Origin: Chiloscyllium plagiosum
Taxonomy: Eukaryota
Length of the DNA stretch: 39,680 nucleotides
Direction: 5' to 3'
NCBI RefSeq assembly: GCF_004010195.1
Contig: NC_057751.1
Coordinates: 13,499,327-13,539,006 of the forward strand
The notes beneath the pieces are model-generated. The model searched no databases and was not told where the DNA came from. It saw only the letters and a program-made list of their open reading frames with translations. Shown here in pieces: positions 2,846 to 38,010 of this stretch. Within the stretch, counting starts at the first letter, position 1; the number at the start of each line of letters is the position of its first letter. The position numbers were made by a program, and so were the translations under genes.

Positions 2846-3059
2846 AGTCAAGATTGGAGTGGTGCTGGAAAAGCACAACTGGCCAGGCAGCATCCAAGGA
2901 GCAGGAAAATCGACATTTCGGGCAAAAGCCCTTCATCAGGAACACTTTTTGCCGAAACGTCAATTTTCCTGGTCCTTGGATGCTGCCTGACCTGCTGTGC
3001 TTTTCCAGCACCACTCTAATCTTGACTCTAATCTTCAGCATCTGCAGTACCCACCTCTG
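2846..3059. mobile_element. Palindromic PLE-terminal derivative, family A, with HHR motif
   Basis: Arms are reverse complements meeting at about 2943; the minus strand reads CTGATGA-A-GGGC-TTTT-GCCC-GAAATGTC; flanked by agatgtgagagttg (2832-2845) / agatgtgggagttg (3063-3076). Confidence 0.85.
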
Positions 3060-3737
3060 CCTAGATGTGGGAGTTGCCCTAGTCTTTGCAGATGATACAT
3101 GAGAAAACGAGAAACTGAAGAAGGAGGAGTAAGGATAACTTGTTGGGGAAGACGCCAAAGATAACAGCCTGGGTGCAGAAAATAAGCAGACACTGTGGAG
3201 ACAATATTCTTCCTATGTTCAGATTGGTAAGAATGAACAAAGGCAGTTGCACTCCGCTGCACCAAGGGGAGTCATGTATAGTGGGCCACTATGTCAAAGA
3301 CTGTAGACTGATGCGTGTGATATGAAATAATACACTGTAATTAGTGGTTATCATTTGTATTTCCAGTTAGAACCGTTTCAGTCTGACTGGGACAGAAATA
3401 CAATCAGAGGTTCAAATCTGTAGCTGCAGAAAGATAGGTATAGGTTTAGTTTGATTTGTGGACTGGAAAAGGAAAAATGAGTACACTGTATTTGTTTTTG
3501 AAGATGGAGCGATAATGGTAGTTTCCAATGTGGAGGAATAGCACCTGAGAGAGGTAATGTACTGGGATATACTATGTACTAATCCAGCTTGTTAATTGAT
3601 CTTTGAAATTCAGTTTTTAAAACTGAAAATTTCTTCTCGATGCATCTAGGTGAGAATTAAATGAGCAGTTTGGTACTTTTCAATGTGCTTAAGAGATCCT
3701 CAAGAGAATCGAACTTCCTCTTATGCACTCATAGGTA

Positions 3738-3858
3738 AGAAGGGCTCATGCCCGAAACGTCGATTCTCCTGCTCCTTGGATGCTGCCTGACCTGCTATGC
3801 TTTTCCAGCAACACACTTTCAGCTCTGATCTCCAGCATCTGCAGTCCTCACTTTCTCC
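3738..3858 (+). mobile_element. Single-arm PLE-terminal fragment, family A
   Basis: agaagggctcatgcccgaaacgtcgatt...ctgcagtcctcac; imperfect flanking direct repeats at 3716-3737 and 3856-3876. Confidence 0.85.
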
Positions 3859-4038
3859 TCTTTGCACTCAAAGGTACTAAAGATTACTTTCGTTGAATCA
3901 CTTACTTTGTTTTTCATTCATGGATTTGCAATACTCCTTTGTTAAAAAACAATGAAGAATGGTATACTAAAGGCAAGTGACAAGTAGTGAAAACTATTTG
4001 ACCAGCAGTCCTATACTGCATAAACTATTGCAATAACA

Positions 4039-4263
4039 AGTTTGCACATTCTCCCCGTGTCTGTGTGGGTTTCCTCCGGGTGCTCCGGTTTCCTCCCACA
4101 GTCCAAAAATGTACAGGTTAGGTGAATTGGCCATGCTAAATTGCCCATAGTGTTAGGTGAAGGGGTAAATGTAGGGGAATGGGTCAGGGTTGGTTGCTCT
4201 TCGGCGGGTCGGAGGGTTGTTGGGCAGAAGGACCTGTTTCCATACTGTAAGTAATTTAATCTA
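4039..4263 (+). mobile_element. 5'-truncated HE1-like V-SINE
   Basis: V-domain tttgcacattctccccgtgtc...ggtttcctcccacagtccaaa, plus a CR1-derived tail (cctgtttccatactgta...aatctaa). Confidence 0.85.
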
Positions 4264-4494
4264 AAAAAAATGTCCAGTTTCAGAAAGTATAGAATTATAG
4301 AATCAAGATTCCCAAAAATACAAACTTACTGTATGTTTCATTACCAAATTCAAATTTAACCATCTAAAAATAACCTCAGGTGGGTGAGCATGTGGACGAG
4401 GGTTATAGGACCCTTACTGGAGGAAATACCATCAAAATATGGATGAAATAATACTCAAATTTGGAAACAACATGCTCAGTCTGGAAACAATATT

Positions 4495-5190
4495 ACATGT
4501 TAGAAGTAAGCCATTAAGTCCTTTGAGCTAATTACACAATTTAGTTAAATCTTGGCTGATGTAAATTTTAAGTGAAGGTGAGGACTGCAGATGCTGGAGA
4601 TTAAAGTCAAGATTAGAGTGGTGCAGGAAAAGCACAGCAGGTCAGACAGCATCCGAGGAGCAGGAAAATCGACTTTTCGGGCAAAAGCGATGAAGGAATT
4701 TTACCCGAAACGTCGAAGTTCCTGCTCCCCGGATGCTGCCTGACCTGCTGTGCTTCACCAGCACCACTCTAATCTAGATGGAAATTTTAACTCCATTTAC
4801 TCATGTTCATTCAATTTCACTGTACACCCCTGCCTAACCCATCAATCTTAGTTTTGAAAATTTCAACACTTTAATTTCCACAGTTTTTCAATCGAGCTTG
4901 GTTGGGGGTTGGGGGTATGCTCAGATTTCCACATGTGGAAGAATTGCTTCCCACATCACTGTTGAATCCCCAAGTCTAATTTTAAGATTATGCCCCTTTG
5001 TTCTGGAGTTCCTTGAAGACAATACCTTATCAAATCCCTTAATCATCTTAAATACATCCAGCAAGTCATCCTTTAATCTTTGACACTTGAGGAAACACAA
5101 ACCTATGTAAACCTGTACTGTGCTATTTATTTGACTCTTTTAGACCCAGTGTCATTCTAGTGAGTCTGTGTTGCAGATCCTCCAAATGCA
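4495..5190 (-). mobile_element. Old, highly degraded CR1-type 3' end, interrupted by the 4572-4776 element
   Basis: Remnants such as ttaagattatgcccctttgttctgga and ccttatcaaatcccttaatcatctt resemble the reverse complement of the CR1 3' ends elsewhere in the window. Confidence 0.5.
4572..4776. mobile_element. Palindromic PLE-terminal derivative, family A
   Basis: Inverted arms joined at 4689/4690 within HHR stem II and core; flanks gatgtaaattttaa (4558-4571) / gatggaaattttaa (4777-4790). Confidence 0.85.
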
Positions 5191-5250
5191 ATAGGTTAGT
5201 CACTTAAAAAGAGTGACTATGAACAGTCTGGATCGCAACATAGATGCGAA

Positions 5251-5465
5251 TTGATTTGGAGATGCCGATGTTGGACTGGGGTGTACAAAGTTAAAAATCA
5301 CACAATACCAGGTTATAGTCCAACAGGTATAATTAGAAGCACCAGCTTTTCAAGCACTGCTTCCTCATCAAGTGGACAATCACCTGATGATGGAGCAGCA
5401 CTCCGAAAGTTAGAGCTTCTAATTAAACCTGCTGGACTATAACCTGGTGTTGTGCGATTTTTAAC
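5251..5465. mobile_element. Palindromic PLE-terminal derivative, family B, with two opposed HHR motifs
   Basis: 5290-5374 is the diverged reverse complement of 5381-5465, with a 6-nt spacer; same family as 15731-15850. Confidence 0.8.
5381..5415 (+). ncRNA. Minimal type I hammerhead ribozyme motif, family B (degenerate)
   Basis: CAC-CTGATGA-T-GGAG-CAGCA-CTCC-GAAAGTTA-GAG; the sister copy at about 15735-15760 supplies AGCTA-GTG, which restores the palindromic stem III and the CAC/GTG stem I. Confidence 0.7.
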
Positions 5466-5809
5466 TCGGTGCTAATTTTTAGTATACAACAAAGAATTGT
5501 GGATGCTGAAAATCTGAAAAAAAAACTAAAATTGCAGGTCTGTCAGCAATTTTCAAAGTAGCTAAAGATAGTTAGGCTGAAAACACTCCACTGAATCATA
5601 CGAGGACAATGACAGAGACTTTGCTGCTATACCACAGTGATGGTTATTTTGTTAGTGCTTTGTATTCTGAGGACAATCAGTTCACATAATTGAACTATCT
5701 CAAAATTAACATCATTCACATATTTTGTCACGATGCAGCATGGAACTGGCAGGGTAATTCCCAGTTCCTGTCTCTTCACAGTGATATATTTTTAAATTAA
5801 TTATTTTCA

Positions 5810-5900
5810 ATGTGGGAATTCAACACTAATTGCCCTTGGAAAAGTGGTGGCGAGCCATCTTCTTGAATCGCTGCAGTCCGTGTGATGTCAGTAAACCATC
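5810..5900 (-). mobile_element. Fragment of an old LINE/SINE 3' tail
   Basis: ctaattgcccttggaaaagtggtgg is the reverse complement of the tail family seen at about 33700-33760. Confidence 0.5.
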
Positions 5901-6776: not shown

Positions 6777-6905
6777 CTTATTGAGAGAGAAAAAAAAAAA
6801 ATCACTCTTGGAAAAGTACGATTCTTTCTTCGATCAAAATATTATTTATTCTTCGGGCGCCTCTTGTATGGTCCTTCTGCTACATGCCTTGATATGATGA
6901 CTCAC

Positions 6906-10321: not shown

Positions 10322-11952
10322 TGTAGTGAATGGAACGACGTCTCATTGAATTTGAGTTCCTTTATTGGAGCTGTTAACCTGGCACAATCAGGGAGCCCTG
10401 GCTGACTGATATAAACAGGAGTGTTAGGAGTTCTGCTCACTTTAGGATCCAGCTCTGTGCGAGCTGGGACAGTGTCATATGGTATACACGTGTAAATGGA
10501 TTTTAAATAAATGGTGAACCTCTCATCTCAGCTGGATAAATACCCTTTCCCTCGCATACAGGACATATACGCAAAACTGGCTGGGGGTTGCTGACCTTCT
10601 CAAAGCTAGACACGAACCATGTGTACCTGCATTTGCTATTAGGTGGTGATTCCCAGAGGTATGCTACAATTAACATCCATAAGCATATGAGGCTATCTTT
10701 TGGGGTATCATTAGCCCGAGCCATTTTCCAACAGATGATGGAAAACATTTTACAGGGTCTACCTTTATTTGGATGACGTGCTAATCACCTGGAAGATCAA
10801 TAATAAAGACCACTTAGAGAACATGGACATAGTGCTTAACGGTTTCTCCAAGATTGGGGTTCACCTTAGGAAGGAAAAGTGTTCCTGGCACCCCAAGGAA
10901 GCTACTTGGGGTACAGAGTCAGCAAGATCACGTTTCACTTGTTGGAAGATAAAGAGAGGATTATCAAAGGTGCCCCGGCTCCTTCGTCTGTATAGAAGCT
11001 TAGGCTTTTTACTCCGGTTGGTGAATTATCATGGAAAATTCATTCTGGCACTCTTACAATTGCTGTTGAAAAAGGTTCAGCCTTGGGAATGGACTCACAG
11101 CCAAGATGTAGCCTTTCAGGATGTGCAGCAGCTGTCGTCACATTACGATCCCAAGCAAGATGCGATGCTGATGTGGAATGCCTCTCCGTATGGTTTTGGT
11201 GCAGTGTTGGCTCAGTTTAGAGGAATGGCCAACAGCACATGCTTCCCGGACTTTGGTTGATGTCAAACGAAGACGGGCCAAAAAGAGGAGGAAGGATTGG
11301 CGGTCATTTTTGGTGTGAGAAAGTTCCATCAATACGTTTACCAACATAAATGTGTAATAGTAACAGACCACAAACCCCTGCTAGGGCTACTTAAAAAGGA
11401 TAGGGCCATGCGCCCAAAGCTTCAGATCAAATTCAGTGGTGGACTCTTATTTTGAGTGCATACAATCACAAGTTGGAACAATATCCAGGAGGCCAAATGG
11501 CAAATGTAGATGCCTTGAGCTGTCTCCCATTGGTAGATATACCACTGGTTGTGCCACCACTGGAAGAGGTCCGTAATGGTTTTCTGGACACCCCCTCACG
11601 ACTGATAATATCTTACTTGGATATCTTACAAAAAAGATCCCATTCTGACAAAACTAAAACAAATGGTGGTGATGGGGGAAACAAAAGGGGCATCACAACC
11701 AGAATTGAAACCTTTCTGGACCCAGTGAGACCAGATCACCACAGAGCACAGCATATTATTAAGGGCAGCAAGAATGATTGTTCTAAGCAAAGTCAGCAAA
11801 GATACTGGGTGAACTCCACCAGGGTCATCCAGGGGTTTCCAGAATGAAGATATTGGCAAGAAGTTACGTCTAGTGGCCAGGATTGGATGCCGACATAGCC
11901 GCATTGGTGGGGCAGTGCCCAGAGTGCCAGCAAGGACAACTTTACTGACAGC
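10322..11952 (+). mobile_element. Outer Ty3/Gypsy element, left part (probable LTR piece, RT, RNase H, IN zinc finger); gag/PR deleted
   Basis: YPFPRIQDIYAKL, FSKLD, RLSFGV, YLDDV (about 10765), ASPYGFGAVL, TDHKPL, NVDALS, CPECQ; TG-initiated LTR-like stretch from 10322 (boundary uncertain). Confidence 0.85.
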
Positions 11953-12582
11953 TGTTATGGACCAGGCCAGACCCCCTCAAAACATTTCAAGGAAGAAATC
12001 CAGATCCTAACTTTGCTTGTTGTTTTCAGCAGGTGTCAAGTGGATATTCCAGGAGTAATGCAGCTGGTCAAACCACTTGGTTTTAAACAAAACAGAATTT
12101 ATTTACAAGATTTCCAAATGAAACACAAATAAAAGAGAACAGAATAACTTAACCTATCCAAACGCCTTACAGATTATCCCAATATAATGATGCTGTTCCA
12201 AATACCTGCAGCAATCCCCATAAACGTCCCTTGGCTTGAAAGGTAAAATCAAACACAGGGTCTTACAGAAGAGATGTCAGAAACAGGGAGGATCAGCGTG
12301 GACCTGATTCTTTTGGTCAAGCAGCTTCACAACTCTGCTTAGTAAAACAAAACCAAACCAGAGTAAAGCTGAGCTGAGAGAACTGGCCACTCCCCTTTCA
12401 TCGTACAAGTGTTTTCTTTAAAATTTGAAAGCCTTTTGCCTGAGGCAGTATCTGTTAGCTATTATCAAACTGGCCCTAAACCCTTTCAAACCTCGACTTT
12501 TTGGAATTGCCGCTTTTATGACCTATCTGAAAAAAAGAAGCCAAGGACAGCAAAACCTTGTTAAAAGAGCAGCATCGTCACA
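11953..12582 (-). repeat. 3' LTR of the Gmr1-like element
   Basis: tgttatggacc...gcatcgtcaca; abutting PPT aaatgggggaag on - (about 12583-12594). Confidence 0.9.
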
Positions 12583-12764
12583 CTTCCCCCATTTAAAAAA
12601 ATCAATATCCAAACATGGTTTCATTTTAAAACCCCTTAATCTTAAATTGTTCATACACTACAGCACACATATACATCACATTGACAATAATCATGTAAAC
12701 ATGCACGACTACATTCTGTTTCAGTCTGTCTAACTGCTGCCACTAAACGCCTCCATTTCTCACT

Positions 12765-14030
12765 CAAGTCTCGACAATGTGTCGGCAATCATGTTTTCTC
12801 GTCCTGGCACATGCACAATCTTCAAATTCAATGGCTGTAACAACAAGCTCCACCTAAACAGTCTGGTATTTTTGTCCTTAAATTTCTCCACAAACGTCAG
12901 TTATGATCAGTGTATATGATTGTCTCAGATACAGTACTGGTAACATAAACATTGAAATGTTGTAACGCCAACACCAAGCTCAAAGTGTCCTTCTCAACTG
13001 TCGAATATTTCTGCTGATGAATGTTCAATTTCCTGGTAAAATACCTGATAGGTCTTTCTATCTTCTCGTCCTGTCCTTGCGAGAGCACAGCACCCACACT
13101 CACATCATTCACATCGATAGCTACCTTGAAAGGCTCTGCGTTATTAGGTCTGGCTAATACAGTGGCTGTGGTTAACACAGCTTTCAGGCTATCAAGTGCC
13201 TTCTGACTGTCCGCTGTTCACTGAAACCTCTTGCCTTTCTTTAGCAATTCAGTGAGTGGAGCAGCCACACTGCTAAAATTTGGGACAAATTTTTGACAAA
13301 ATCCATTCAATCCCAGGAATTGTAGTACTGCTCTTTTTGTCGATGGTGTGGGAAACTCCCAAATTATCTTTGTTTTTGCATTCCGTAGGCCATTTGTCCG
13401 TGCCTAATAACATCACCCAGGAAGGTGACTTGGCAAATTCACTTTTAGCCAGGTTCATCACCAAACCTGCATCCCGAAGTCATTCTAATAAATGTTGCAA
13501 TTATTCCTTCCATGTGTGACTAAAAATCATCAGGTCATCGAAATATATGACACAATTGGGTAATCTGGCAATGACCATATTGGTTAGTCTCTCAAATGTG
13601 GCTGGTGCATTTTTCATACCAAACAGCATGACTTTAAACTTATACAGTCCATTCAGCATTACAAAAGTTTAAATTGTCTTTCTGACAAAGGTACCTGCCA
13701 GTATCCTCTGAGCAAGTCCAAATTAGAAATATAAATCACTTGTCCCACCTTCTCAACACAGTCTTCCAAACGTGGAATCAGACATGCATCAGTCTTTGTA
13801 ACTGTATTGATTTTGCAATAGTCGGCATATAACCATTGGGTACCATCTGGTTTTGACACCATTACTATGAGTGAGCTCCAGTCACTGTAACTCACTACAG
13901 TTATGTTGTCTTGGAATGTGCGTTGAATTTCGTTTGAACCTAAACCAACTTCAGAGGGTTATGCCTATAAGGATGGTGCTTAATCAGAACAGCATCTCCT
14001 ATTTCTACATCACACATGATTAGATAGTGA
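12765..14030 (-). pseudogene. RT and RNase H remnants of the Gmr1-like element
   Basis: YADYCKIN, LDLLRGYWQVPL, VIYFDDL (13531-13551), AIDVNDVSVGAVL, YTDHN, ENMIADTLSR. Confidence 0.9.
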
Positions 14031-14230
14031 TCTAATTTCCCAGCTTATTTCCACATATGTCCCGATATGATAGCTATCACTAGAAGTAACTGATCCCCGA
14101 CAGCATAATTGCGAGTTTTTGATTTCTTATCTGCTTCCTGTTTCATTGTTTACTGTGATACTTCTAAATGCTGTCCAGCCATCTCCCCTGCTTTACTCAA
14201 TTGTTCCTAAAAATTTGACACATAGTCCAA

Positions 14231-15100
14231 TTATGTGGCCTCTGAATTTTGACTTACCAATTTCTCCCTAATCAATTTTAATGGTCCTCTCACTTCCTGC
14301 CCAAAAACTAATTCAAATAGACTGAATTTGATCATTTGGTGCATCTCTGATAGTAAAAAGCACAACAGAATTCCCTTATGCCAATCATCTGGATTGTCTT
14401 GACTATAAGCCCTCAACATGGTCTTAAATGTCTGATATCACTTTACTAGCACTCCCTGCAACTCCAGATGATATGCAGTAGATTTGAATTGTTTTATACC
14501 TAAGCTGTCCATAAATTCTTTGAATAATTTTGATGTGATGTTTGAACCTTGATCTGATTGTATCTCTGTGGGTAGTCCATATCTAGTGAAAAATTTGAGT
14601 AATTCTCCCATAATCCTTTTAGCTGTGATATTGCGGAATGGAACAGCCTCTGGAAATCCAGTGGACTCATCCATTATTGTTAACAAATACTGATTCCGAC
14701 TTTTTGTTTTAGTTGGGGTCCTACACAACCAATTATGACTCTTGTAAAAGATTCCTCAAATGTAGGAATAAATATTAAAGGTGCGAGTTTTAATACTGCC
14801 TATGGTTTTCCAAATACCTGACATGTATGACATGGCTGGCAAAGTTCAACTACATCCTTGTGCAGTCCAGTCCAGTAAAAATGTTTTTGTATTTTAGCTC
14901 GTTATTTTCTTATGCCTAAATGATACCCTGCTGGTAGCTTATGCGCCACTCACAACACCTCTGTTCTATAACCCACAGGCAATATGACTTGATGAACTTC
15001 TACCCATTTCGCATCAGCCTGAATATGTGATGGTCTCCATTTCCTCATTAAGATATCATTTTTAAGATATTAGCCTTCAGGGCTACACTCAGATTCTTCC
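14231..15100 (-). pseudogene. Integrase remnant lying upstream of RT
   Basis: YHLG...FYW...CQPCHTCQ zinc finger, YLLTIMD, IQSDQGSN, STAYH. Confidence 0.9.
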
Positions 15101-15730
15101 TGCATGTGTGCCTCTTGATACAATTGCTTTAAATTTCTACCTTTCTGCTATGACTCAGTTAATTTATCTGAGCGAAAGATGTTTGCTTTATCATCTATCT
15201 GCTCCTGGCTTGTCTCAACCATCTGATCAAACAGGGTCTCCATTAATTCCACTTCAACTTTCTTATCTGTACTGTTTGATCTTTCCTGTTTCAACTGGTG
15301 ACTTTGTGACCTTGTTACTACACATTCTGGAAAAATCCTAGGATACGTGTCCTGCAATAGTTGAGTTGCCTGAGTTTCCACTGGCTTTTAAACTATGGTA
15401 GGCAGCACTCCTACCTGTGAACCAGCTATATCGTTTGCAAGGACAAATTATATTCCTGGAGCTGAGAGTTTGTCCAGTATTACTACTACAACTTCTCCAC
15501 TCTTCACTGGACACTCCAACCTCACTCTACATAAGCAAGCGCTTCTTGTCTCATTGTGATTTCCTATTACAAGCACCTTTTCTTTCAATAGTCCTTCAGA
15601 GGTACATCTGTCTTCATCTTTCAACATCACAGATTGAGAGGATCCTGTTTCTCTGAATATTGTAACCTCTTTCCTGCTGCTCTTGGTCTATGTGAGTAAA
15701 CTTTACCTTTGCAAATATATGGTTTAAGAA

Positions 15731-15850
15731 GGTGAAGGAGCGTCGCTCCAAAAGCTAGTGTGCTTCCGATTAAACCTGTTGGACTATAACCTGGTGTTGT
15801 GTGATTTTTAACTTTGTACACCCCAGTCCAACACCAACATCTCCAAATCT
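15731..15850 (+). mobile_element. Single-arm PLE-terminal fragment, family B, inserted in the Gmr1-like element
   Basis: gaaggagcgtcgctccaaaagctagtg...ctccaaatc; reverse complement of 5252-5365. Confidence 0.8.
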
Positions 15851-16010
15851 TGATTTATGGACCAACTCATAATCGTCAATCGTTTTAGTTGCTAATCTTG
15901 CTGTTTTAACTCTCTGCACTTTCATGAGTTCTCACTACTTCAGGAAGTGAATTTTTGAATTCCTCCAAAATAAGCATCTCTCTAAGAGCATCATGGGTTT
16001 GCTCCTTTTT

Positions 16011-19000
16011 AAAAATATATTTTCATCAAAAAATAGATTTTTAAATATTACAACAAATACAAACAAAACAATTCAAAACTACTACAAAGGAAGAACACCA
16101 AGAAACATTTTAAAAACCCAAACTGCCCTCAGAAACAAATGCATAAATATACAAAACTATATTTAAAAGACCCAACTGCTTAACTAAATAAATAATAACT
16201 AACAACAAACGAATAAATAATAATAATTCAGGTCAGCAAAACAAAATACTAACTCTTGAATATCGAGACTATTACTTTCCACATATTCATATGTTTGCAG
16301 TTCCCCCTCTCTGGATATTGGACTCGTCCAGCACAATTGTTATGGCTATATAAAAGCCCTTATTAGTGTGACAGACAAATCTGTGTCCAGGTAGTCCAAA
16401 TAGGACCGCCATGTCTTGTAGAAGTTCTCAGTTTTGTGGTGTACCATAGTTGTAAGAAAATCCAAGGGGATATACTCCATAACAATCTTACGCAACCTGA
16501 CAGCCTGGGGATTTTCAGACACCCAACCGAACAAAATATTCTTTATTTTGCAGAAAGTGAGGATGTTGAAAAGTTTTATCTGTGGCGCATCTACAGGGAA
16601 CACACTGGGCTGGTCAAGAAGTAGAGAGATCGGGTCCTTCTCCACCCTTACACCCAAAATCCCCTCCATTGCACCTGTCACAGCACTCCAGCATGTTTCA
16701 AGCCTACCAAAGGACTAGAGACAATGGGTAAGAGTGCCTGTACTAACTTTACACTTCGGGCATGTTGAAGATACCCCTGGTTTAAATTTTGACAAAAGAT
16801 CCAGAGCCAAGTGGACTCTGTGGAGAATTTTCAACTGTAAAGCATGGGTCCTATTGTAAATTGAAATCTTTCTTGCGTTTTACCAAATATTTTCCCATGC
16901 CTCTGAGCAGATCTCAACACCTAGCTCTCTCCCACCACACCCTGCAAAGTCGATCAAACTCATCTGAGGGATCGCCCACCAACTGATGATATAAAGTGCT
17001 GACAGAAAGTGCATTCTTTGCACTGAGCACCCTCCTTTCTATGTCAGATTTATAGGGATCAGTCAAAAGTGCTGTCCTTTTTTGAATAAAATCCCTAACT
17101 TGAAAAAAACAAGTTAGTCCCTGCTAGATGGCTCGTATTTCCACACTAACTGATCAAAATACATCACTGAGTCTCCCTCAAATAAATCATCCATGCAAGG
17201 TGTAAGAATTGATGTTTTGCCAGAATTGCCTTCCCTCTGCCAAATTGCATTCCATGCTTTAGTAGTATTGATAACTATTGGGTTATGGCAATATTCCTTA
17301 ACTGTCCTCATTTTGTCCAAAATCAGCAAAATAGTAAGGGAGCACTTTGCCTGAGCGGTTTCGATATCTAACCATATTGAAAAAGGGTCCCTACAAGCCC
17401 AATCATTCACCTAAGATAAAAGAAAGTTTAGTTGATAGGTTTTAATGTCCAGGAGATCCACTCCCTCCAGTCTGTGAGGGAATTGCAGTTTAGCTAACTT
17501 AATAAGGGGCCACTTACGATGCTAAATAAAAGAGCTGAACCAGCCGTTCAGTCTCTTGAATGTTTGCTTATCGAAAATTAGGGGGAGCATCCGTATAGGA
17601 TATAACAAATGGTTCGGGAATAATCATCTTAATAAGAGCGATCCAACCTAACCATGAGACCAGAAGCGCCTCCCATCTTTGAAGGTCTTGTTTGAGTTTG
17701 TCAAATAATTGAACAAAATTAGCTTTAAACAACTGATCGAGAACTAGAGTGATGAATATGCCCCAATACATAAACACCCCTGTGACCACTTAAATGGGAA
17801 TCGAGATTCGCCCTCAAGACCAAGCACCTTCGTAAGATCACCCATAGGATAGCCTCTGATTTTACAAAATTAATCTTGTACCCTGAAAGGGTGCTAAACA
17901 AGCTGATGCATTATATAAGGCAAGCACTGAAACTGCTGGATTTGACAAAAAAAATGAGGACATCGTCCATGTACAATAAAATCTTATGTAATCTGGAGCC
18001 ACTTCTGGAGCCAATATACTGGGATCACTATGAATGGCCTTCACCAATAGCTCAATCACCAATGCAAAAAGCAATGGTGAAAGGGGCATCCATATGCTAA
18101 AGTTGCTTGACTGTACCCCATTGGTGATGACTGCAGTGAGAGAGTCACTGTAAAGAACCTTTACCCATCTTATAAAGGCTTCACCGATGCCAAACCACTC
18201 CAGAGTATAGAAAAGATATGGCCACTCAACTCTGTCAAATGCCTTCTCTGCTCAAGCTGCACCACAAATGCAAGCAGAAAAGAAAGAAAAAACATTATGA
18301 AATAACAAAGTGAACAAAGACATTTTGAAAAAAAAAGGTAAGTACCTCCCCATCCTTTGATATAACTTAACTTAGAAATTGAAAGTACGCATCCCAACTG
18401 CCCCTGAGCATAGTTGAGACTAGATGGTTACCAACAAAAACAAGGAAAAGAAAGCCCCCGACTGGACTTCCCTTTTTCTTAAAGAAAAGTAGAGATATGC
18501 CCAAATAACAATACTATTTGTACATACTAAATTGTTCAGATCAAATTAATTTGTCCACAAAGTCTCTTGCCTTCTCTGACATATCAAAGAGATGTACAGA
18601 TCCATCTAAGGTGATCCAAAGTACCGCCAGATCCTGAGTTCCCTCAGTCTTTTCTTGATGCTGTCATAGGATTTTCTTTTCCGGATCACTGCCGCTGAGA
18701 AGTCCTGGAAGAGCATGATCTTAGAGACCTCATAAACTAGGGCCTTTGGATCCTTCCCCTGGGTTCCAGAAGCTTCCACGATTCCCTCCTTATCTCTATA
18801 GTGGTGAAACTGCACCAAAACAGGATGAGGACATTGGTCCAGATCTGACCTCCACGCTGTGAGCTGGTGAGCCCTCTCAATCTTCAAGCTATTCATTCCA
18901 GCCTCCAAGTTAAGAAATTTCGGCAACTAGTCCACAATACATGCCACCGGTCGCTCACCTTCCTTACCCTTGGCAGACTGACGATCGGAATATTTTTTCT

Positions 19001-19519: not shown

Positions 19520-19530
19520 GCTCTATTTTT

Positions 19531-20411: not shown

Positions 20412-20533
20412 TGCTTTCTGAAACACTGCTTCAACTACCACAAAATCAACCCCTAAAAGCAAAAGTTACTAACCCCTTCCACTCACAGCCTTTGAGTCTT
20501 ACACCCTTATCCTAATTTGGATATATAGAACAA

Positions 20534-20552
20534 ATCCTGCAAAGAACCCCCA
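20534..20552 (-). other. Degenerate primer-binding site (tRNA-Pro type)
   Basis: tgggggttctttgcaggat 3 nt after the 5' LTR, versus canonical TGGGGGCTCGTCCGGGAT. Confidence 0.65.
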
Positions 20553-20555
20553 ATC

Positions 20556-21820: not shown

Positions 21821-22622
21821 GGATTCCATTAGAGCATAGCAAACTGAAGCAACTAGACTGGGTCTTATGTAGCTAGTGGCTAGTAGAACGTGGAAGTCAA
21901 GGGATAAACTGCGCATGTAGACCTAAGCCTGATTTAGAGTATTTGATTCAAGGCAAACTTATAGAGTTAAATTAAGAGTTAGGGCTACACGTGGATTAAG
22001 TAAAGTCAGATAAGTTGAAGTTAAATGAAGTGAGTTAAAGTTCGGTTAGACGAAAAGAGAAGTAAATGTTGCCACAAATGTATGCTTTAATTAAGTATTG
22101 GTACTTAAAGCATTAAATAAAGGAGGGTTTGTTGAATTAAAATCTGAATTAGTTCCCTATCTTTTGTCTGTCACACAAGGGAAGGACACCTTGGAAGAGA
22201 TTGAAAATGCCTTTTTGGGGATCAGAAGCATTTAATAATACACAGAGCCTTATAATTGGCAGACAGAAATAGAATGAACACAGATTATGCCACTTTCAAT
22301 TCAACAACATCAGTGACAGCCATTCCCTGATTAATTTCTGCAATATCTTGACCTATCAGAGTCATCATGCCTGGTTTAAAATTGAAACAAAGTTGAGCAA
22401 TCACCTGCCCATCGTCTGACTTGTGCATTCTCCCTGGCAATGCCTCAAATAATCAGAGTCTACTTGACAACCAGTCAGCACTCTCTTCTCACACAGAGTT
22501 TTCACTTTACACTGGTGTTGTGAATTTTCCAAATCAAAAAGCTTCCACAGTGTGTGTCTTTGTTCAATACTCAAATGGTATTACTTTATTTAATGTACAG
22601 ATATATGTGATTTTAGAGAAGA

Positions 22623-23187
22623 TTTGTAGCTTAGGTTGTAAATGAGGTTGTAGGATTGCTCACTGAGCTGGTAGATTTGTTCTCAGACGTTTCACCACCA
22701 TGCTAGGTAACATCATCAGGAGCCTCCAGTGAAGTGCTGTTTGCTACTTACATGTCTTGGTCGGTTGTGGTGGGTGATATCACTTCCAGTTCTTTTTCTG
22801 AGAGGTTGATAAATGGGGTCCAAATCAATATGTTTGAGAGAAAGAGGGACACCAGTTCAACTGGGACAATTCATCTATCCTGGGACAGGCTAAACAAAGG
22901 ACGCGCACAGAAATTCCTAGAGGCCTGGTATTCAAACCAGAACTCCATTAACAAGCATATTGATGTGGACTCCATCTCCCAATCTCTCAGAAAAAGAAAC
23001 GGAATTGATATCACCCAGCACAACAGACCAAGACACATATATAGAAAGCGGGACATAACACCAGTGCTTCATCGGAGGCTCACTGATGATGTTACCTGGC
23101 ATGGTGACATCACTGATGATGTTACCGTGCATGGTGAGGAAACGTCTGAGATCAAATCTACCAGTTCAGTGAGCAAACTTACAATCA
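22623..23187 (+). mobile_element. 5'-truncated Penelope-like element, family C, preceded by an inverted copy of its own 3' end
   Basis: KFLEAWYSNQNSINKHIDVD matches the PLE endonuclease C-terminus; about 22643-22836 is the diverged reverse complement of about 22952-23187. Confidence 0.85.
23079..23150 (+). ncRNA. Minimal hammerhead motif, family C, with a 30-bp tandem duplication of core and stem II
   Basis: CTCA-CTGATGA-T-GTTACC-6nt-GGTGAC ... CTGATGA-T-GTTACC-6nt-GGTGAG-GAAACGTC-TGAG; antisense copy at 22682-22723. Confidence 0.75.
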
Positions 23188-23619
23188 GTACAGATAAAAT
23201 TATTGATGCTGTGAGCAGGCAAGTTCTGAATACATTTATAGTAAATGTTGCTGTAACTTTTAAAATTCATTAATCAAGTTATCTATTGGCTTCAGCTAAA
23301 TGAGAAAGGAGGATCGCATGAAGCATTCAGCAGCTATTGACAAGTCAGTTATCAATGAAGGCTTTAATTTATGTCATATTCATCAGAAGATACTTGTCAA
23401 ACATTATACATATATAATTTCTCAGTTTCTGACCTGAAACATTTCAACCATTTTTTAACCATTTTCAACTATCTTTTTAGGATGATAACTGCAAATGATA
23501 GAGAAAATTATTACTCCTTGTCATTGAAAGTAGTAAATAATCTTGAGAATATTAGAATGATTGTCATGCAAGGAAGTAAAGATATTTATCCATCAGGGTA
23601 TCAGTATGCTACATCATGC

Positions 23620-26095: not shown

Positions 26096-26404
26096 TGTTA
26101 GGTTGTTTTTCTTGAGATTCTTGCACACTTGATGCAACTGCAATATGCCAACTTCTGTGAACAGCCAAAATGTATTAAACAAGTGCAAACTGTGGGGGAA
26201 CCCTTTACACTCTTCGCAAGACTTCCCTAATCTTGTACTCTTGTGCCTTTGAAATAAAGGCCAGAATTCATTTTGATTTTATGCATAAGAACCTCCAATT
26301 CCCTGCGTTGCAGCTTTCTGCAGTGTTTATCAATTTAAATAATATTCAATTCCTACCAAAGTGCATAACCTCACATTTTCCAAGTTATATACCATTACCT
26401 CAAA

Positions 26405-26455
26405 TAGTGAAAAAACATCTGAAAATGAACCTTCCAGCTCAGTGGGCAAACCTAA
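26405..26455 (+). mobile_element. Short family C PLE-terminal fragment
   Basis: gtgaaaaaacatctgaaaatgaaccttccagctcagtgggcaaacct resembles 23134-23180. Confidence 0.5.
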
Positions 26456-26502: not shown

Positions 26503-26620
26503 TGAGCTTTTGCCCGAAACGTCGATTTTCCTGCTCCTCGGATGCTGCCTGACCTGCTGTGCTTTTCCAGCACCACTCTAATCTTGACTCTAATCTCCAG
26601 CATCTGCAGTCCTCACCTTC
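26503..26620 (+). mobile_element. Single-arm PLE-terminal fragment, family A
   Basis: gcttttgcccgaaacgtcgattttcc...ctgcagtcctcacc. Confidence 0.85.
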
Positions 26621-27138
26621 ACCATATTTGCAACATCTTGTCAGTAGTTTACTATCGTTCTTGAGTAATGAGGTGACTCAGAGTCTCTACTCATTGAGAG
26701 CTAACAGCATTTCATTAAACCTTGCCAGAGACTATTAAGTGGATTGAACAGGCAGCTTTGCAACTGTTATAGACTTCCATGATACACAGTGCCACTGATT
26801 TAATGTATGTCACTCGCTGGACACTGTCTATCAATTCTGCTTGATACGAGAGTGGAGAGAAATGACATTTGCTCAAGAAATAACTGATGTATAACCAAAG
26901 GTGACGAATTGTACTAGGTAATGCCCATTATCTTCGTTAGTTATTCATTCTTCATTCTCCAACAATTCACTGTGCCAGCTACATTTGAGCCAACATAGAA
27001 ACTGAAGGATGGCTACAAGTTGACAAAGGTCAACCACTGATGACATATGTGCTGATACTGATGGAAAGCACAATGTTGTATTAAGAGGGATACAGCAGGG
27101 GTTTGACATGCTGAAATAATGCTTCCACTGCCTGGAGG

Positions 27139-30716: not shown

Positions 30717-30906
30717 GAAACTTCCACCCCAGGAAGTTCTGGAGGGATCATGCACTTCCTGTCCATCACATCAACAAGATTCCATTAATTACTCACATAT
30801 CCACATATACAATGTAATGAGCTGAGAACCATGTGATCATGCAACAGAAGCCAAATACACCCAAGCAGAAGCGAAGTCCATTTTCATGTTTGACACTCTC
30901 AATAAA

Positions 30907-32670
30907 GTGTGGCACTGGAAAAAGCAAAGCAGGTCAGGCAGCATTTGAGAGCAAAAGAGTCAACATTTTGGGCATAACCCCTTCATCGTGACTGGGGAGG
31001 GAGAAGGGGGCTAAGAAATAAATGGGGGAAGTGGGGATGGGGCTGTAGATGTACAGTAGATGGGATGCCAATAGGTGGGTGCAGGTAGGCGGTGATTGTG
31101 CTAGGTCGGTGGGAAGTATGGAGCAGACAGGTGGAAAGAAAGAGGGACAGGTAGGTCAGGTCAAGAGGGCAGTGCCATGTTGGAGGGTTGAATCTGGGAT
31201 GGGGATGGGGAGTGGGGAGATTTGGAAACTGGTGAATTTAATGTTAAGGCTGTGTAGTTGGAGGCTCCCAAGGCGGAAGATGAAGTGTTCCTTCTCCAGT
31301 TTGCAGGTGGCCTTGTTTAGGTAGTGAAGGAAGACCAGAATGGGTGTGTCATCAGGGGAGTGACAGGGGGAGTTGAAATGGATGGCCACCAGAAGGTGGG
31401 GTTGGTTGGTGCGTATGGACCAGAGATGACCCTGAACAATTCCGTGAGTTTGCGCTCAGTCTCTCTGATGTCGAGGAGACCACATCCAGAGCAACAGATG
31501 CAGCAAATGAGGTTTGAGGACATGCAAGTAAACTCTGCCAGATTTGGAATGATCCTTTGGGGCCTTGGATGGAGATGAGGCAGGTTTTGCACCTCTTACA
31601 GCAGTAGGGGAAGGTGCCAGGTGTGGAGATGGGATTGGTGGGAATGTAGACCTAACGAGGGCTTCGCAGAGGCAACAGTCCCTATGGAGCGCAGATAGGG
31701 GAGGAAAATATATTTTTGATGGTGGGATCTGACTGCAGGGGTGAAAGAATGGTGGAGGATGATATGCTGGATTGGGAGATTAGTGGGATGGAATGTGAGG
31801 ACCGGGGGATTCTATCCTTGTTGTGGTTGAGGGCTTGGGGTTTGAGGGCAGGGAGTGCGGGAAATGTAGAAGATGCGATTAGGGCATTATTGATCACAGG
31901 GGAGGAGAAATTACGGTCTTGAAGTAGGAGGACACCTGGGGATGTCCAAAGTAGAATCGCTCATCCTGGGAGCAGATGCGGCAGAGGTGAAGGAATTAGG
32001 AGTAAGAGATCACGTTTTTACAAGAGGACCATGGGAGGAAATGTAGCCAAGGTAGCTGTGGAGTCAGTGGGTTTGAAATAGTTGTCAGTGTTGAATCAGT
32101 CACCGGGGATGAAGACAGAGAGGTCCAGGAAGGGGAGGGAGGTGTCAGAGATGGTCAAGGTGAATTTGAGGTCAGGGTGGAAGATGTTGGTGTAGTGGAT
32201 GAACTGTTCAAGCTCCTTGTGGGAGTGTGAGGGCAGCACTGATATAATCATCGATGTCACAGAGGAAAAGGTGGGGGATTGTGCCAGTGTAGCTGTGGAA
32301 GAGGGACTGTTCCACATATCCTACAAAGAGGCAGGCACAGCTGGGACCAATGCGGGTACCCATAGCCACCCCTCTGATTTGTAGGAAGTGGGAGGATTCA
32401 AAGGCGAAGTTATTTAACTTGAGTACCAGTTCCGCCAGTTGAATGAGAGTGTTGGTGGAGGGAGACTGGTTGGGTCAGAGGTGGAGGAGGAATTGGAGGG
32501 CTTTTTGGCCCTCTTCATGGGGATAAAGGTGTAGAAGGATTGGATGTCCACGGTGAAGATGTGGTGTTGGGGGTCAGAGATTTGGAAGTCATGGAGGAGG
32601 TGAAGAGCATGGGTGGTGTCTTGAACGTACGTGGCGTGTTCCTGGACCAAGGGGTACAGGAAAATGACAG
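30907..32670 (-). mobile_element. Decayed Penelope-like element (RT plus Cys-containing GIY-YIG endonuclease) ending in a family-A-related terminal repeat
   Basis: TYVQDTTH, FTVDIQSFYT, GVAMGTRIGP, LPFLDL, FTCMSSNLICCICC..CG, KEHFIFRLGSL; HHR remnant at 30957-30994. Confidence 0.9.
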
Positions 32671-32859
32671 AAGTGGCATTTACGATAATCTGCCCACCAA
32701 AGGTAATTTTGGGTTCCAGCAGGACCAATTGCTGTCAATGTTACTGTAATCATTGCCCAAACATGGGCTGAAAGTGACTCTTAACAGTAAAACAACATTT
32801 GCCTAAATAGGGCATGAAGGAAGCACAGATCAATTGCAGTCAATTGCAGTCAGGGAAAA

Positions 32860-34496: not shown

Positions 34497-36276
34497 TCAA
34501 AGAGTCATTGAGAGGTACAACTCATCCATGCCGACCAGATATCCAATCTAATCGAGTCCCATTTGCCACTACTTGGCCCATATCCCTCTAAACCGTTCTT
34601 CTATACCCATCCAGATGCATTTTAAATGTGGTAATTGTACTAGCCTCCACCACTTCTTCTGGCAGGTCATTCCATACATGTACTACCCGCTGTGTGAAAA
34701 ATTTGCCCCTTATGTACCTTTTATATCTTTCCCCTCTCACCCTAAACCTACGCCCTCTAGTTCTGGACTCCCCCACCCCAGGGAAAAGACTTTGCCTATT
34801 TATCCTATCCATACATCACTGTCTGCATGAAAATGTTGCCCTTAAGGACCTTTTTACATCTTTTCCCTCTTACCCTAAACCTATACCATCTAGTTCTGGA
34901 GTCAACCACCCCAGGGAAAAGACTTTGTCCATTTATCCTGTCCATGCCCCTCATGATTTAAAAAACCGCTGTCAGGTCACCCCTCAGCCTCTGACACTCC
35001 AGGCAAAACAGCTCCAGCCTATTCAGCCTATCTCTATAGCTCAAATCCTCCAACCCTGGCAACATCCTTGTCAATCTTTTCTGAACCCTTTCAAGTTTCA
35101 GAATGTCCGTCCGAAAGGAAGAAGACCAGAATTGCACACTATATGCCAAAATTGACATAACCAACATGACTTCCCAACTCCTATACTCAATTCTTTAACC
35201 AATAAAGGAAAGCATACCAAATGTCTTCTTCACTATCCTATTGACCTGCAACTCTACTTTCAAGGAACTGTGAACCTCCAAGGTCTCTTTGCTCCTGCTC
35301 TGATTTGCTTTTCCAAAATGCAGCACCTCACATTTATCTAAATTAAACTCCATCTGCCACTCCTCAGCCCATTGGCCCATCTGATCAAAATCCTGTTATA
35401 CTCTGACATAACCTTCTTCGCTGTCCACGACACCTCCAATTTTGGTGTCATCTGCAAACTTATTAACTATACCTCTTATGTTCACATCCAAATCATTTAT
35501 ATAAATGACGATAAGTAGCGGATCCAGCACTGATCCTTGTGGCACTCCACTGGTTACAGCCCTCCAGTCTGAAAAGCAACCCTTCACCACCACCTTCGAC
35601 CTTCGTGCCTTTTGCATTCAAATGGCTAGGTCTCCCTGTATTCTATGAGATCGAACCTTGCTAACCCGTCTCCCATGGGAAACCTTGTCGAACGCCTTAC
35701 TGAAGTCCATATAGATCACGTCCACCACTCCGCCCTCATTAATCCTCTTTGTTACTTCTTCAAAGAAATCAATCCAGTTTGTGAGACATGATTTCCCATG
35801 CACAAAGCCATGCTGACTTTTATGCATTTCAAGACATCCAGCACCACCTCCTCTGTAATATGGACATTTTTCAAGATGTCACGATCTATTTCCCCACATT
35901 CTGTATCTTCCATGTCCTTCTCCAAAGTAAACTGATGCAAAATACTTGTTTAGTATCTCCCCCATCTCCTGTGGATCCACACAAAGGCTACCTTGCTGAT
36001 CTATGAGGAGCCTCATTCTGTCTCAAGTGACCTTTTGTCCTTAGTGTATTTATAAAATCCTTTTGGATTCTCCTTAACCCTATTTGACAAAGTTATTTCA
36101 TGTCCTCTTTTTGCCCTCCTGATTTCCCTCTTAAGTATACTCCTACTGCCTTTATACTCTTCTAAGGATTCACTCGATCTCTCCTGTCTATAGCTGCCAT
36201 GTGCTTCCTTCTTTTTCTTAACCAAACTCTCAATTTCTCTTGTCATCCAGCATACCTACCAGCCTTTCCTTTCACC
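34497..36276 (-). mobile_element. Internally deleted CR1 LINE with a diverged internal duplication
   Basis: QHGFVHGKSCLTN, YMDFSKAFDKV, SGVPQGSVL, FADDTK; about 34691-34816 repeats at about 34824-34950. Confidence 0.93.
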
Positions 36277-37363
36277 AAGCCACAACTCAGTTGGTGGCAC
36301 CATCACATTTTTAAGAGTTTGTGGGAGCTTGTGTGAAATTACTGCTACATTTACATCAATTACCAAAGTTAAAATAATGTGTCACTTAATGCAATGCATT
36401 TTGCAATGACACGGAAGTCCTGAAGGACATCGTTTTCACTTCCATTCAAAGGCACAACGTTCTCGAAATTGTGCTGTGCAAAGTTGCTTCAAATCTATCA
36501 CAATTCAGCACTGAGATAAACCTTGCAATACAAATAGTGACATTTTAACATTTATGCTTTGAAGACAAGCATTAAATATTCCTGACCTACGGAAAACAGT
36601 AATCTGTTTTGCTAACAACTAAGCAAAGCTTCTATCCAGACATCAGGTTGTTTGGACCTCTTGCAGATAATTATGTCATTCAGTCTCAGAAAAGAAATCT
36701 TTCTGATTAACAAAGACCTGATTGATGGAAATTGATTTTCAGTCTCAGCATAAGATAAACTGGGAAAGCAGTAATTGGACACAAGACACACATCGATAAG
36801 TATTTTTTGGTATGTTCAATTTTATAATAATCCAGGCTTGAAATGCAGAAGGCAAATTGACCTATTAATGAGACCTCATTCTCTAAATAAATTCATTCCG
36901 ACACCAGTAGTCATTCTCTGCTATGCAGTATCCAACACAGGCTTTATTGTGGATTTCTCTCCAGCTATCGTTTCTTAAAGTGCCATCATTTTGAGAAGAC
37001 ATATTTTTACCGTCCAAATAAATAGCCATGCAGATATTCACTTTCCATTGCCATCAAAGAAGAGTGCATTTTATTCCCAGTAGAGTCAGGAGCTGAAATT
37101 TCAACATGGTATGCTCTGATGCAACAATGGCATACAGAGCACCTCCTCCTTCTCTGCTGTCACAGGTATGTTGCCCCCTTCTTGCTCCTTTAAATGTTCT
37201 CCCCTTCCTGTTCACTCTGACAGTTCTCACACATTTATGCTTTGGAGATAATAGTAACATTTTAACATTTATGCTTTGGAGACAAGCATTATACATCCCG
37301 ACTTCCGGAAAACAAGGGTCGTGACAATTTTCAAAGTGTTGAGATGGGGTCACAGTGGGGTCG

Positions 37364-37379
37364 AGTTTGGGAAACACTG
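37364..37379. mobile_element. hAT/Charlie-like terminal inverted repeat (right end only)
   Basis: agtttgggaaacactg is the reverse complement of CAGTGTTTCCCAAACT; preceded by gggtc repeats and followed by acctacat (central TA). Confidence 0.5.
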
Positions 37380-37815
37380 ACCTACATAACAAGGACAGAT
37401 AGAACCAAATTCTGTGTCTGCCACCACGTGAATTAGAATGACTGAAACTGAAATAATAGCGCAGTGAGAGGTTTCCTATTTGTCTGAGCTATCTGCTAAT
37501 TCTCTGATCTATAACCAGGAAATATAAAAGTGCAAATTATACTGCAAAGCTGTTTGAGATGTAAATCTCACACTGATTCAATTCCAAAATGAAGCATGAT
37601 ATAGAAATCTTCGGTCTGGTCACATGGTTCAGCATGACTTTAGAAGTGCAACTGCGACAGCTAGTTCAGTCCAGAAAATGTAAAAATGGTTGACTTAAGA
37701 GATATTATTCTTCCTGGCATATTTTCTTTTACTTGCTTTTGAAATTCTTTCCTTGAAAATTTAATGATACCACCTTCCACTATCATAATGGTGCAAATCA
37801 TCACCATTTAGGTTA

Positions 37816-38010
37816 TGGAAAAGCACAGCAGGTCAGGCAGCATCCGAAGAGCAAGAAAATTGACGTTTCAGGCAAAAGCCCTTCATCAGGAATGAGGCTT
37901 TTGCCCAAAACATCGATTTTCCTCCTCCTTGGATGCTGCCTGACCGGCTGTGCTTTTCCAGCACCACACTAATCTTGACTCTAATCTCCAGAATCTGCAG
38001 TACCCACCTC
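37816..38010. mobile_element. Palindromic PLE-terminal derivative, family A
   Basis: Minus strand CTGATGA-A-GGGC-TTTT-GCCT-GAAACGTC; arms meet at about 37895; flanks caccatttaggttatgg (37802-37818) / caccatttaggtcatgg (38011-38027). Confidence 0.87.

Follow-up and report, generated by a model that had tools for sequence, protein, structure and literature searches.

Worn end-pieces of three Penelope-like element lineages with minimal hammerhead motifs in a shark genome

Ten insertion units of three families

The window analysed here is a stretch of 39,680 nucleotides from the genome of the shark Chiloscyllium plagiosum. Over the span 2846-38010 it holds ten insertion units with 15 arms, which fall into three families (A, B and C; Table 1) and bear out the sequence-only reading of this DNA, which had counted about ten loci with a hammerhead layout. 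Family A comprises three palindromes, two solo stubs and one A-like arm that ends a decayed open reading frame (ORF), family B one palindrome and one solo stub, and family C one inverted pair and one remnant. The copy number of these end-pieces is very high: contig records over the A and B stretch number 120,338 and 105,804 in two species (records, not copy numbers). Target-site duplications (TSDs) of 9-22 nt flank five of the ten units (p <= 0.0103) and are clear in four of the five palindromes. The family B solo stub has one long direct repeat of an LTR-type element on either side.

Table 1. Insertion units and associated features in the window (positions of the window; minus and plus starts are relative to the predicted cut; E, covariance-model E-value)
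Feature	Position	Strand	Arms and core	TSD
Family A head-to-head unit	2846..3059	.	E 7.5e-8; minus arm: complete core, CUGAUGA 2939-2933, cut predicted after 2912, AUGU as palindrome, 3' end short (66 nt past cut); plus arm: begins within stem II, long end 98 nt	17 nt, 2829-2845 and 3060-3076 (score 12, null p 0.003)
Family A solo stub	3738..3855	+	E 4.8e-5; begins within core (~-23 from cut), long end	21-22 nt, 3716-3737 and 3856-3876 (p 0.002)
Family A head-to-head unit	4572..4776	.	E 0.018; minus arm: starts -18, long end 99 nt; plus arm: starts -26, stem II broken, short end 62 nt	14 nt, 4558-4571 and 4777-4790 (p 0.003)
Family B head-to-head unit	5252..5466	.	E 0.003; plus arm: complete core 5384-5412, palindrome and stem I lesions, short 54-nt end; minus arm: decayed, with long 91-nt end	not significant (p 0.13)
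Family B poly(A) signal position	5313..5333	-	AUUAAA in read majority, AUUAUA (decayed) in this arm	
Family B solo stub	15731..15849	+	from ~-25, long end 92 nt, G12 changed	not significant
Family C head-to-head unit, long arms, ~580 bp	22606..23187	.	plus arm: C-terminal part of GIY-YIG-type endonuclease frame, 30-nt tandem duplication of core and stem II (~23077-23136), short end 41 nt; minus arm: core at 22719, stem I one base short, long end 80 nt	9 nt, 22595-22603 and 23188-23196 (p 0.010)
Old family C-like remnant	26395..26454	+	75% over 60 nt, starts at stem II	not significant
Family A solo stub	26505..26623	+	from -18 (in stem II), long end 100 nt	not significant (p 0.70)
Decayed, 5'-truncated, putatively Neptune-type element with A-like arm	30904..32695	-	A-like arm ~30904-30995, 76-79% identical, dead hammerhead, cut position 30962, stem I AGUC/GACU	not significant
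Family A head-to-head unit	37819..38010	.	E 2e-5; minus arm: complete core from -36, changes at G1.1 and C11.1, short 43-nt end; plus arm: starts ~-19 to -25, long 96-nt end	17 nt, 37802-37818 and 38011-38027 (p 0.002)

A minimal hammerhead, worn in every copy

The stems and palindromes named in the sequence-only reading are present, namely GGGC/GCCC with ACGU-C in family A, GGAG/CUCC with AGCU-A in family B and GUUACC/GGUGAC with ACGU-C in family C, and all three families have a stem II with G10.1-C11.1 and an extra A or U after position 9. Stem I measures 3 bp in B, 4 bp in C and in the A-like arm, and 2 bp in family A, where it is weak, two Watson-Crick pairs being followed by U-U in the read consensus as well. 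Minimal type I hammerheads of Penelope-like elements (PLEs) were described, in fish, coelacanth and Xenopus among others, by Cervera and de la Pena, whose text reports the same layout, with an extra base between 9 and 10.1, G10.1-C11.1, a palindromic 15-16 segment and several families per genome, mostly as single motifs from truncated PLEs, with opposite-strand pairs ~100-700 bp apart. The stem I of family A differs in being shorter than their 4-5 bp, and resembles the 2-bp helix of D. virilis. No shark appears in the parts consulted of that text and its supplement.

The invariant core (CUGANGA, GAA, A15.1, U16.1, H17) is fully kept in 5 of the 15 arms (2939-, 37889-, 5381+, 22719- and 23113+), each of which has a stem or palindrome change. 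In agreement with the earlier statement that every copy is lesioned, a strict descriptor scan of the window finds no lesion-free family motif; the single loose match of the descriptor (22550, minus strand) lies outside the three families, and 0.7 such matches are expected per shuffle. Part of the damage is accounted for by CpG decay (6 of 32 differences in eight A arms, CpG sites being 10% of positions). The motifs in the window stubs are predicted to be inactive in these copies. Public reads bear on the state of the family consensus. The ACGU palindrome of family A is restored in 885 of 1064 RNA reads at 4674 (one run); for family B the read majority restores 304/329 at 5410, in the AGCU palindrome, 210/217 at 5414 and 292/307 at 5391; and a loose-end read consensus supplies the CUGA(U/A)GA core of both. 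The proposal that the consensus is intact while the copies are not therefore stands for A and B, the family C core being known from its two window arms alone. Read starts and ends do not pile up, and oligo-dT-primed single-cell reads and contigs are in any case unable to show a cut. No clean hammerhead dimer emerged when five real arms were cofolded under an energy model that leaves out the tertiary contacts of the core.

We built a covariance model from 32 minimal hammerheads of metagenomes, all outside this genome (48 loci matched, 38 unique; 6 were dropped before modelling, four with AGGU and two with fewer than three stem II pairs). Its core letters are partly circular, because the scan pattern was written from families A and B. 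Among 24 matches at E <= 10 in the window, the best five (E 7.5e-8 to 0.018) are all A or B arms and the next has E 1.7; the model did not match family C, with its 6-bp stem II. Covariation of the stems, which the earlier reading had put forward as a check, is present in the 38 unique outside motifs at positions that the scan pattern left free: 26 Watson-Crick pairs at stem I position 3 (10.4 when shuffled) and 32 at stem II position 3 (13.7 when shuffled). Stem I position 2 pairs in 23 of the 38, and so is imperfect there too; overall, 86% of cells pair, as against 67% shuffled and 20-46% slid. Rfam returned no hammerhead in the window, a blank that is uninformative since it also misses 20 of 20 outside minimal hammerheads. 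A PLE protein was matched by tblastn within the 400-nt flanks of only 1 of the 48 outside motifs, so that their PLE origin is mostly inferred, and an inverted copy is present at 3 of 34.

Links to Penelope-like elements

The sequence-only reading took the loci for pieces of PLE terminal repeats with minimal type I hammerheads, which the ORF links of the A-like and C arms and the architecture of B uphold. Shark proteins with a reverse transcriptase (RT; PF00078) and a GIY-YIG domain (PF01541, just below the cut-off) cover 32695-31258 by tblastn, directly upstream of the A-like motif. The element reads as RT motifs, a CxxC linker and a GIY-YIG region with frameshifts and stops, followed by a 3' UTR. 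The CxxC-type linker precedes GIY-YIG both in the window translation and in comparison protein P0010; a CX2-5CxxC linker is a feature of the Neptune clade, common to Nematis, according to the sections consulted of PMC8557442. From its sequence, the element is probably a Neptune-type PLE.

Searching a profile library with the frame upstream of the C motif yielded 19 proteins, five of which have a sub-threshold GIY-YIG match just before the aligned stretch; one of these five, from a fluke, extends into residues that look like a translation of the C hammerhead. With the same frame, word-based protein searches found no match, and Pfam gave no meaningful match for nine short window frames. The link for family C covers the C-terminal part of the endonuclease only, and with only this end present the label Penelope/Poseidon, a clade marked by RT phylogeny and by the lack of a CX2-5CxxC linker, is tentative. 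No family B arm reaches an ORF within the window, and the PLE origin of this family therefore rests on its architecture.

Arm ends and the published insertion unit

Past the predicted cut, the arms of A and B end at 91-100 nt (long) or 43-66 nt (short), and those of C at 80 and 41 nt. The long end exceeds the short by 32-39 nt in four of the five palindromes and by 53 nt in the other, and the solos share their ends with the long arms. At the 5' side, the starts of 12 of the 15 arms fall in a 22-nt interval between 16 and 37 nt before the cut; no arm starts at the cut, and three extend far into the ORF. The short-ended arm extends further 5' in all five palindromes (sign test, p 0.03), and each arm therefore holds sequence that the other lacks; this polarity is partly circular, because in three of the five one of the two arms was itself the reference for 5' extent, a reference backed by reads (A, B) and by protein homology (C). 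The three A palindromes have three different centres and the reads hold further junctions, the diversity of junctions resting on these three copies and on 15 of 803 joints examined.

The five palindromes are the inverted-pLTR-plus-tail insertion unit that has been published for PLEs (Arkhipova et al. 2013, PMC3846280; Craig et al. 2021, PMC8557442). As those papers describe it in the parts consulted, this is a head-to-head inverted, 5'-truncated copy with a TSD round the whole unit and a 30-40-bp tail at one end only. The window units differ in their TSDs (8-10 bp there, up to 22 nt here) and in their arms, which are usually cut to 90-130 nt, so that the unit is a ~200-bp hairpin without an ORF. 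The arm-end difference matches both this tail and the two RT start sites described in part for Poseidon_Ac (PAc) of Anolis (Frangieh et al. 2024, PMC11167929).

Two further claims of the earlier reading found no support. It placed a hammerhead on both strands, and the core is on both strands in only two of the five palindromes (B and C). The CUGAUGA half is on both arms in these units alone, the B minus arm having C3, G12 and H17 changed, and in all three A palindromes one arm begins within stem II or the core. It also expected a ribozyme motif together with a long hairpin from either strand; the arm-to-arm hairpin is predicted to beat the ribozyme-compatible fold by 20-48 kcal/mol, with stem II pair probabilities of ~0 in 9 of the 9 strand folds in which the motif could be located. 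Hairpin and ribozyme would thus be alternatives, not co-products. Nor can one transcript form a dimer, because in a head-to-head arrangement each motif lies on its own strand.

How the units may have arisen

It is likely that the ten loci are 5'-truncated PLE end-pieces with worn minimal hammerheads, the palindromes having been built afresh at each insertion. They may arise by two-sided priming, a mechanism on which we are evenly divided. The RT-endonuclease of the element would nick both target strands, and one cDNA would be primed from each nick on RNA left uncut by the ribozyme, one beginning at a distal and the other at a proximal internal start site. Synthesis of both would usually halt at the hammerhead or shortly before it, and head-to-head joining would give inverted arms, one of them with a tail. 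The role of the ribozyme, if any, would belong to full-length or tandem element RNA, which it would cut slowly as a dimer or with protein help, and in the window stubs it would be a passenger. PAc, in the account consulted, is alike in having two internal sites, downstream of the hammerhead, at which RT starts, in the use of uncut RNA as main template, with which the absence of starts at the cut is consistent, and in the cutting and extension of both target strands. It differs in being intact, with a hammerhead shown to cleave with protein help, whereas the window copies are decayed, and the A-linked window ORF has the Neptune/Nematis-type CxxC linker.

A possible, if less probable, alternative concerns the mechanism only and is compatible with PLE end-piece identity: a single cDNA would snap back near the hammerhead hairpin and copy itself, the endonuclease later trimming the first end. 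Self-priming has been proposed for head-to-head pLTR palindromes (PMC3846280, in part) and endonuclease-mediated resolution for the tail (PMC8557442, in part), and fold-back with trimming also predicts the arm polarity seen in all five palindromes. Without trimming, however, it cannot give each arm sequence absent from the other, and in vitro, in the sections seen of PMC11167929, both sites serve PAc directly as starts of reverse transcription and both target strands are extended.

We think it unlikely that the stubs derive from a short transcript, begun a little 5' of the hammerhead at a pLTR promoter or processing site and mobilised in trans, its ~120-nt module being a SINE-like partner of the PLE. 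The clustering of 5' ends at the hammerhead would be as expected, the solos would be a semi-independent short element, the read consensus fades ~16 nt upstream of the A core, and transcription start sites are reported in the pLTR of Penelope and Chlamys (PMC8557442, in part). Yet the starts spread from -16 to -37, several of them in stem II, which is better fitted by RT stalling or joining at the hairpin, and three arms run on into the ORF.

Far less probable is the earlier proposal that the ~200-bp palindromes are a non-autonomous PLE family spreading as a unit, with ribozyme and hairpin in either direction. The presence within 40 kb of five similarly built palindromes, of which four have clear TSDs, their abundance, and the existence of non-autonomous PLE derivatives (PMC8557442; bioRxiv 10.64898/2026.07.22.740005; each in the part consulted) speak for it; the differing junctions, the extra 32-53-nt tail on one arm, the rarity of two-strand cores, the predicted dominance of the hairpin and the ends shared by solos and long arms speak against. 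Non-LTR retrozymes (Li, Clavereau, Pollet 2026, bioRxiv 10.64898/2026.07.22.740005), which that preprint, in the part seen, reports in one chondrichthyan genome, are likewise non-coding, PLE-derived and equipped with a type I hammerhead, but are arrayed as direct tandem repeats, each unit having a complete hammerhead, whereas the window units are solo or inverted. We rejected a retrozyme identity, the only tandem piece being the 30-nt duplication, with one cut site. The portions seen of Schostak 2008 (PMC2377424) and Kojima 2018 (PMC5753468) hold nothing decisive on these units. Finally, an accidental or pattern-fitted likeness of decayed repeats to hammerheads, as the strict descriptor, the Rfam blank and the two-pair stem I of family A might suggest, is exceedingly improbable and already contradicted, since the core recurs in three unrelated tails whose complementary stems differ, and is restored by the read majorities, the outside motifs covary where the pattern was free, and Rfam misses those motifs as well.

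A poly(A) site past the family B cut

Oligo-dT-primed family B reads end at 5313, where a GU/U-rich stretch follows, and 388 reads have a poly-T loose end before this position (one run), placing a used poly(A) site ~29 nt past the predicted cut. The hexamer A(A/T)TAAA follows 11 of 33 outside hammerheads, against which stands a contrary interval with 7 of 30 at -225 to -180; hexamers of this type are absent from the family A and C tails in the window. The geometry is that of the Clec2 3'-UTR hammerhead, as outlined in part of a review (PMC6765202), in which the cut site also lies upstream of the poly(A) signal, so that cleavage would remove the signal; that ribozyme differs in being split and in lying in a host gene, not at a retroelement end.

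One might speculate, with considerable doubt, that in many PLE lineages a hammerhead placed shortly before the poly(A) signal of the element itself acts as a switch of RNA fate. Polyadenylation ~29 nt past the cut would yield an mRNA without either RT start site (in family B these lie at +54 and +91), cleavage by the ribozyme would rob the mRNA of its tail, and only read-through, uncut RNA would be copied into DNA. We did not find this pairing of ribozyme cut and poly(A) site stated for PLEs in the literature searched, mostly open-access, or in term look-ups of PLE papers. If the switch is real, the many family B stubs would also seed poly(A) sites across the shark transcriptome.

Meaning

The units are ordinary worn end-pieces of three PLE lineages, with a known minimal hammerhead motif in copies predicted to be inactive. 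We found no description of the three shark families in the literature searched, and the extension of the 2014 observation to shark PLE families is a modest gain. In the abundant stubs both ends of the arms are preserved for every insertion, and a genome-wide count could separate two-sided priming from fold-back. The poly(A) site just past the family B cut offers a testable role for the PLE ribozyme.

The hammerhead motifs and their families

The sequence-only reading recognised minimal hammerhead motifs of Penelope-like elements (PLEs) in this vertebrate-type, repeat-rich DNA, and these are real and belong to a known kind, already published (PMC4209133). The literature searched and two supplementary files of that paper yielded no shark families, though its file 1 may bear on the matter; a 2026 preprint (bioRxiv 10.64898/2026.07.22.740005) reports tandem retrozymes in one chondrichthyan. 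A retroelement reverse transcriptase (RT) frame in the window matches Chiloscyllium and Stegostoma proteins at ~70-75% identity, on which ground the DNA is called shark-like. Self-comparison of the window gave 10 insertion units, with 9 family A or A-like arms, 3 of family B and 3 of family C or C-like (see table).

Features of the window (~, approximate)
Feature	Position (strand)	Remark
Family A palindrome	2846-3059	
Family A palindrome	4572-4776	
Family A palindrome	37819-38010	
Family B palindrome	5252-5466	
Family C palindrome	22606-23187	
Family A solos	3738; 26505	
Family B solo	15731	Within the putative LTR-type element
A-like arm	~30904-30995 (-)	Predicted cut 30962; stem I of 4 pairs
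C-like remnant	26395-26454	
Decayed PLE	32695-31258	Directly upstream of A-like arm; frameshifted RT, CxxC linker, GIY-YIG region
Duplication in family C unit	23077-23136 (+)	30-nt tandem; two CUGAUGA-stem II units, one cut site; stem II perfect in the first, G10.1-C11.1 pair missing from the second
Putative family B poly(A) site	5313-5333 (-)	Element sense: ~15 nt after AUUAAA, ~29 nt after predicted cut, then GU/U-rich stretch
LTR-type element	~11950-21190	Putative; its apparent ends are two long direct repeats separated by ~8.6 kb, with pieces that are 79-90% alike; by eye, LINE-like insertion at ~16000-19500
Third piece similar to these repeats	from ~39281	
Duplication in LINE-like fragment	627-1000	187-bp tandem, 100% identical; either recent or an assembly artefact

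Aligned on the predicted cut, the arms show the layout described from the sequence alone, and the accompanying claim that every copy carries at least one lesion also stood, as none of the 15 arms was lesion-free in the descriptor scan and arm comparison. The invariant core bases are all kept in five. Closest to intact is the 2939 (-) arm, whose sole motif change from the family majority, ACGU to AUGU, could still self-pair through G-U. Stem I of family A has 2 pairs followed by U-U. Read-majority letters, which cover families A and B, gave ACGU in 885 of 1064 RNA reads at 4674 and restored GGGC/GCCC at 4697 (22/26 reads), 4698 (23/26) and 4703 (26/31) in family A, whose loose read ends carry CUCAUUC and then the core; in family B they restored the extra A (292/307), AGCU (304/329) and the stem I partner (210/217). 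The modules of families A and B are highly abundant: the stretch 4540-5500 was matched by 120,338 and 105,804 contig records in two organisms, these being records and not copy numbers.

Comparison with chance

A search pattern written from families A and B recovered 48 metagenome loci, 38 of them unique. At the positions left free by the pattern, the 38 unique motifs form 26, 23 and 20 Watson-Crick pairs in stem I (positions 3-5), against about 10 in shuffled sequences, and 32 and 26 in stem II (positions 3-4), against 13.7 and 10.3. A covariance model was built on 32 of these outside motifs, six being dropped, and 86% of cells pair in the kept motifs, against 67% when shuffled and 20-46% when slid; its core letters are partly circular, since the pattern came from A and B. 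With this model five window arms had rough E-values of 7.5e-8 to 0.018 and everything else at least 1.7, and the family C arms had no match in the window scan. Rfam matched neither the window motifs nor any of 20 outside motifs. The hammerhead likeness exceeds chance.

A marine metagenome motif, at L005:401-431 and L011:401-431, agrees with family B in stem I, in the ends of stem II and in AGCU-A (85% identity over 34 nt); its tail is unlike that of family B, and AATAAA follows here too. An inverted copy of motif and tail lies nearby in 3 of 34 outside hammerhead loci (L019, L027 and L028), and in L015 the motif is preceded by a match to the GIY-YIG region.

PLE origin

The proposed PLE origin is backed by an open reading frame link for the A-like arm, which directly follows a decayed PLE with a CxxC linker, a marker of Neptune or Nematis (PMC8557442), and for family C; family B has no such link within the window. 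Upstream of the C plus arm lies a frame with matches to 19 proteins, and in five of these a sub-threshold GIY-YIG match stands just before the aligned stretch. One of the 19, from Clonorchis, continues into a peptide resembling the translated C hammerhead, which suggests that a fluke element may carry a motif of this type.

Formation of the palindromes

Target-site duplications of 9-22 nt, significant relative to random window pairs (p <= 0.0103), flank whole units in 5 of 10 cases, among them four of the five palindromes. In every palindrome the 3' end of one arm is longer than that of the other (by 32, 37, 53, 37 and 39 nt), all three A and B solos have the long end, and contig joints in the A/B stretch also occur at both end positions. 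The palindromes are the published inverted pLTR with a one-ended tail (PMC3846280, PMC8557442), and their ends match the pair of internal sites at which RT starts in Poseidon_Ac of Anolis (PMC11167929). A single fixed unit is not supported: each of the three A palindromes has its own centre, and the reads hold further junctions (among the 15 listed of 803 joints). Twelve of the 15 arms begin between 16 and 37 nt upstream of the cut, and no arm begins at the cut itself, so that the templates were likely uncut RNA; Poseidon_Ac templates are uncut in vitro (PMC11167929).

The short-ended arm extends further 5' in all five palindromes (p 0.03, partly circular for three). Two-sided priming would yield this pattern and is favoured, since Poseidon_Ac in vitro extends both target strands and begins RT at both sites (PMC11167929). 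Snap-back of a cDNA followed by trimming can yield the same 5' extent, with which plain snap-back of one cDNA is incompatible. A ends are also found joined tail to tail with B ends, at 4574-5252 in 11 and 17 contigs and at 4578-5289 in 6 and 7 contigs of two species, possibly through repeated insertion into one target site.

A putative poly(A) site in family B

In one oligo-dT-primed RNA run of one sample, the loose ends of 388 reads, lying immediately before 5313, are poly-T (median 67 nt, agreement 0.81), with an excess at this point of reads whose first mate is on the plus strand; no such end was found among the DNA rows listed. Internal priming at a particular family B copy is a possible source. 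The site lies upstream of both family B insertion ends. Of 33 outside motifs, 11 have A(A/T)TAAA no more than 45 nt past the cut, as do 10 of 23 clusters of tails. Shuffles predict 2.0 such motifs, the antisense strand has 3, and ten other windows together have 15 of 297 (Fisher p 5e-6, relatedness ignored); one contrary window, upstream of the motifs, has it in 7 of 30. The hexamer is missing from the window tails of families A and C. In both arms of A and B, element-sense reads of this run exceed antisense reads ~1.3- to 4.6-fold in most bins and about equal them in two B bins, polarity being assumed from the poly-T reads.

Ribozyme function of the copies

The suggestion that transcription in either direction would yield a ribozyme was not borne out, as the core is present on both strands only in the B and C palindromes and the hairpin is predicted to outcompete the ribozyme fold. 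In equilibrium predictions both directions give a long hairpin, stem II has a probability of ~0 in all 9 cases where the motif could be located, and folding in a way that allows the ribozyme would cost 20-48 kcal/mol. In nascent RNA the motif could fold briefly before the second arm emerges, depending on direction. Head-to-head motifs lie on opposite strands, so that no dimer is possible within one transcript, and the activity of such motifs has been published as low and dependent on dimers or protein (PMC4209133, PMC11167929). Given the opposite strands, the favoured hairpin and this low activity, we treat the motifs in these copies as passengers.
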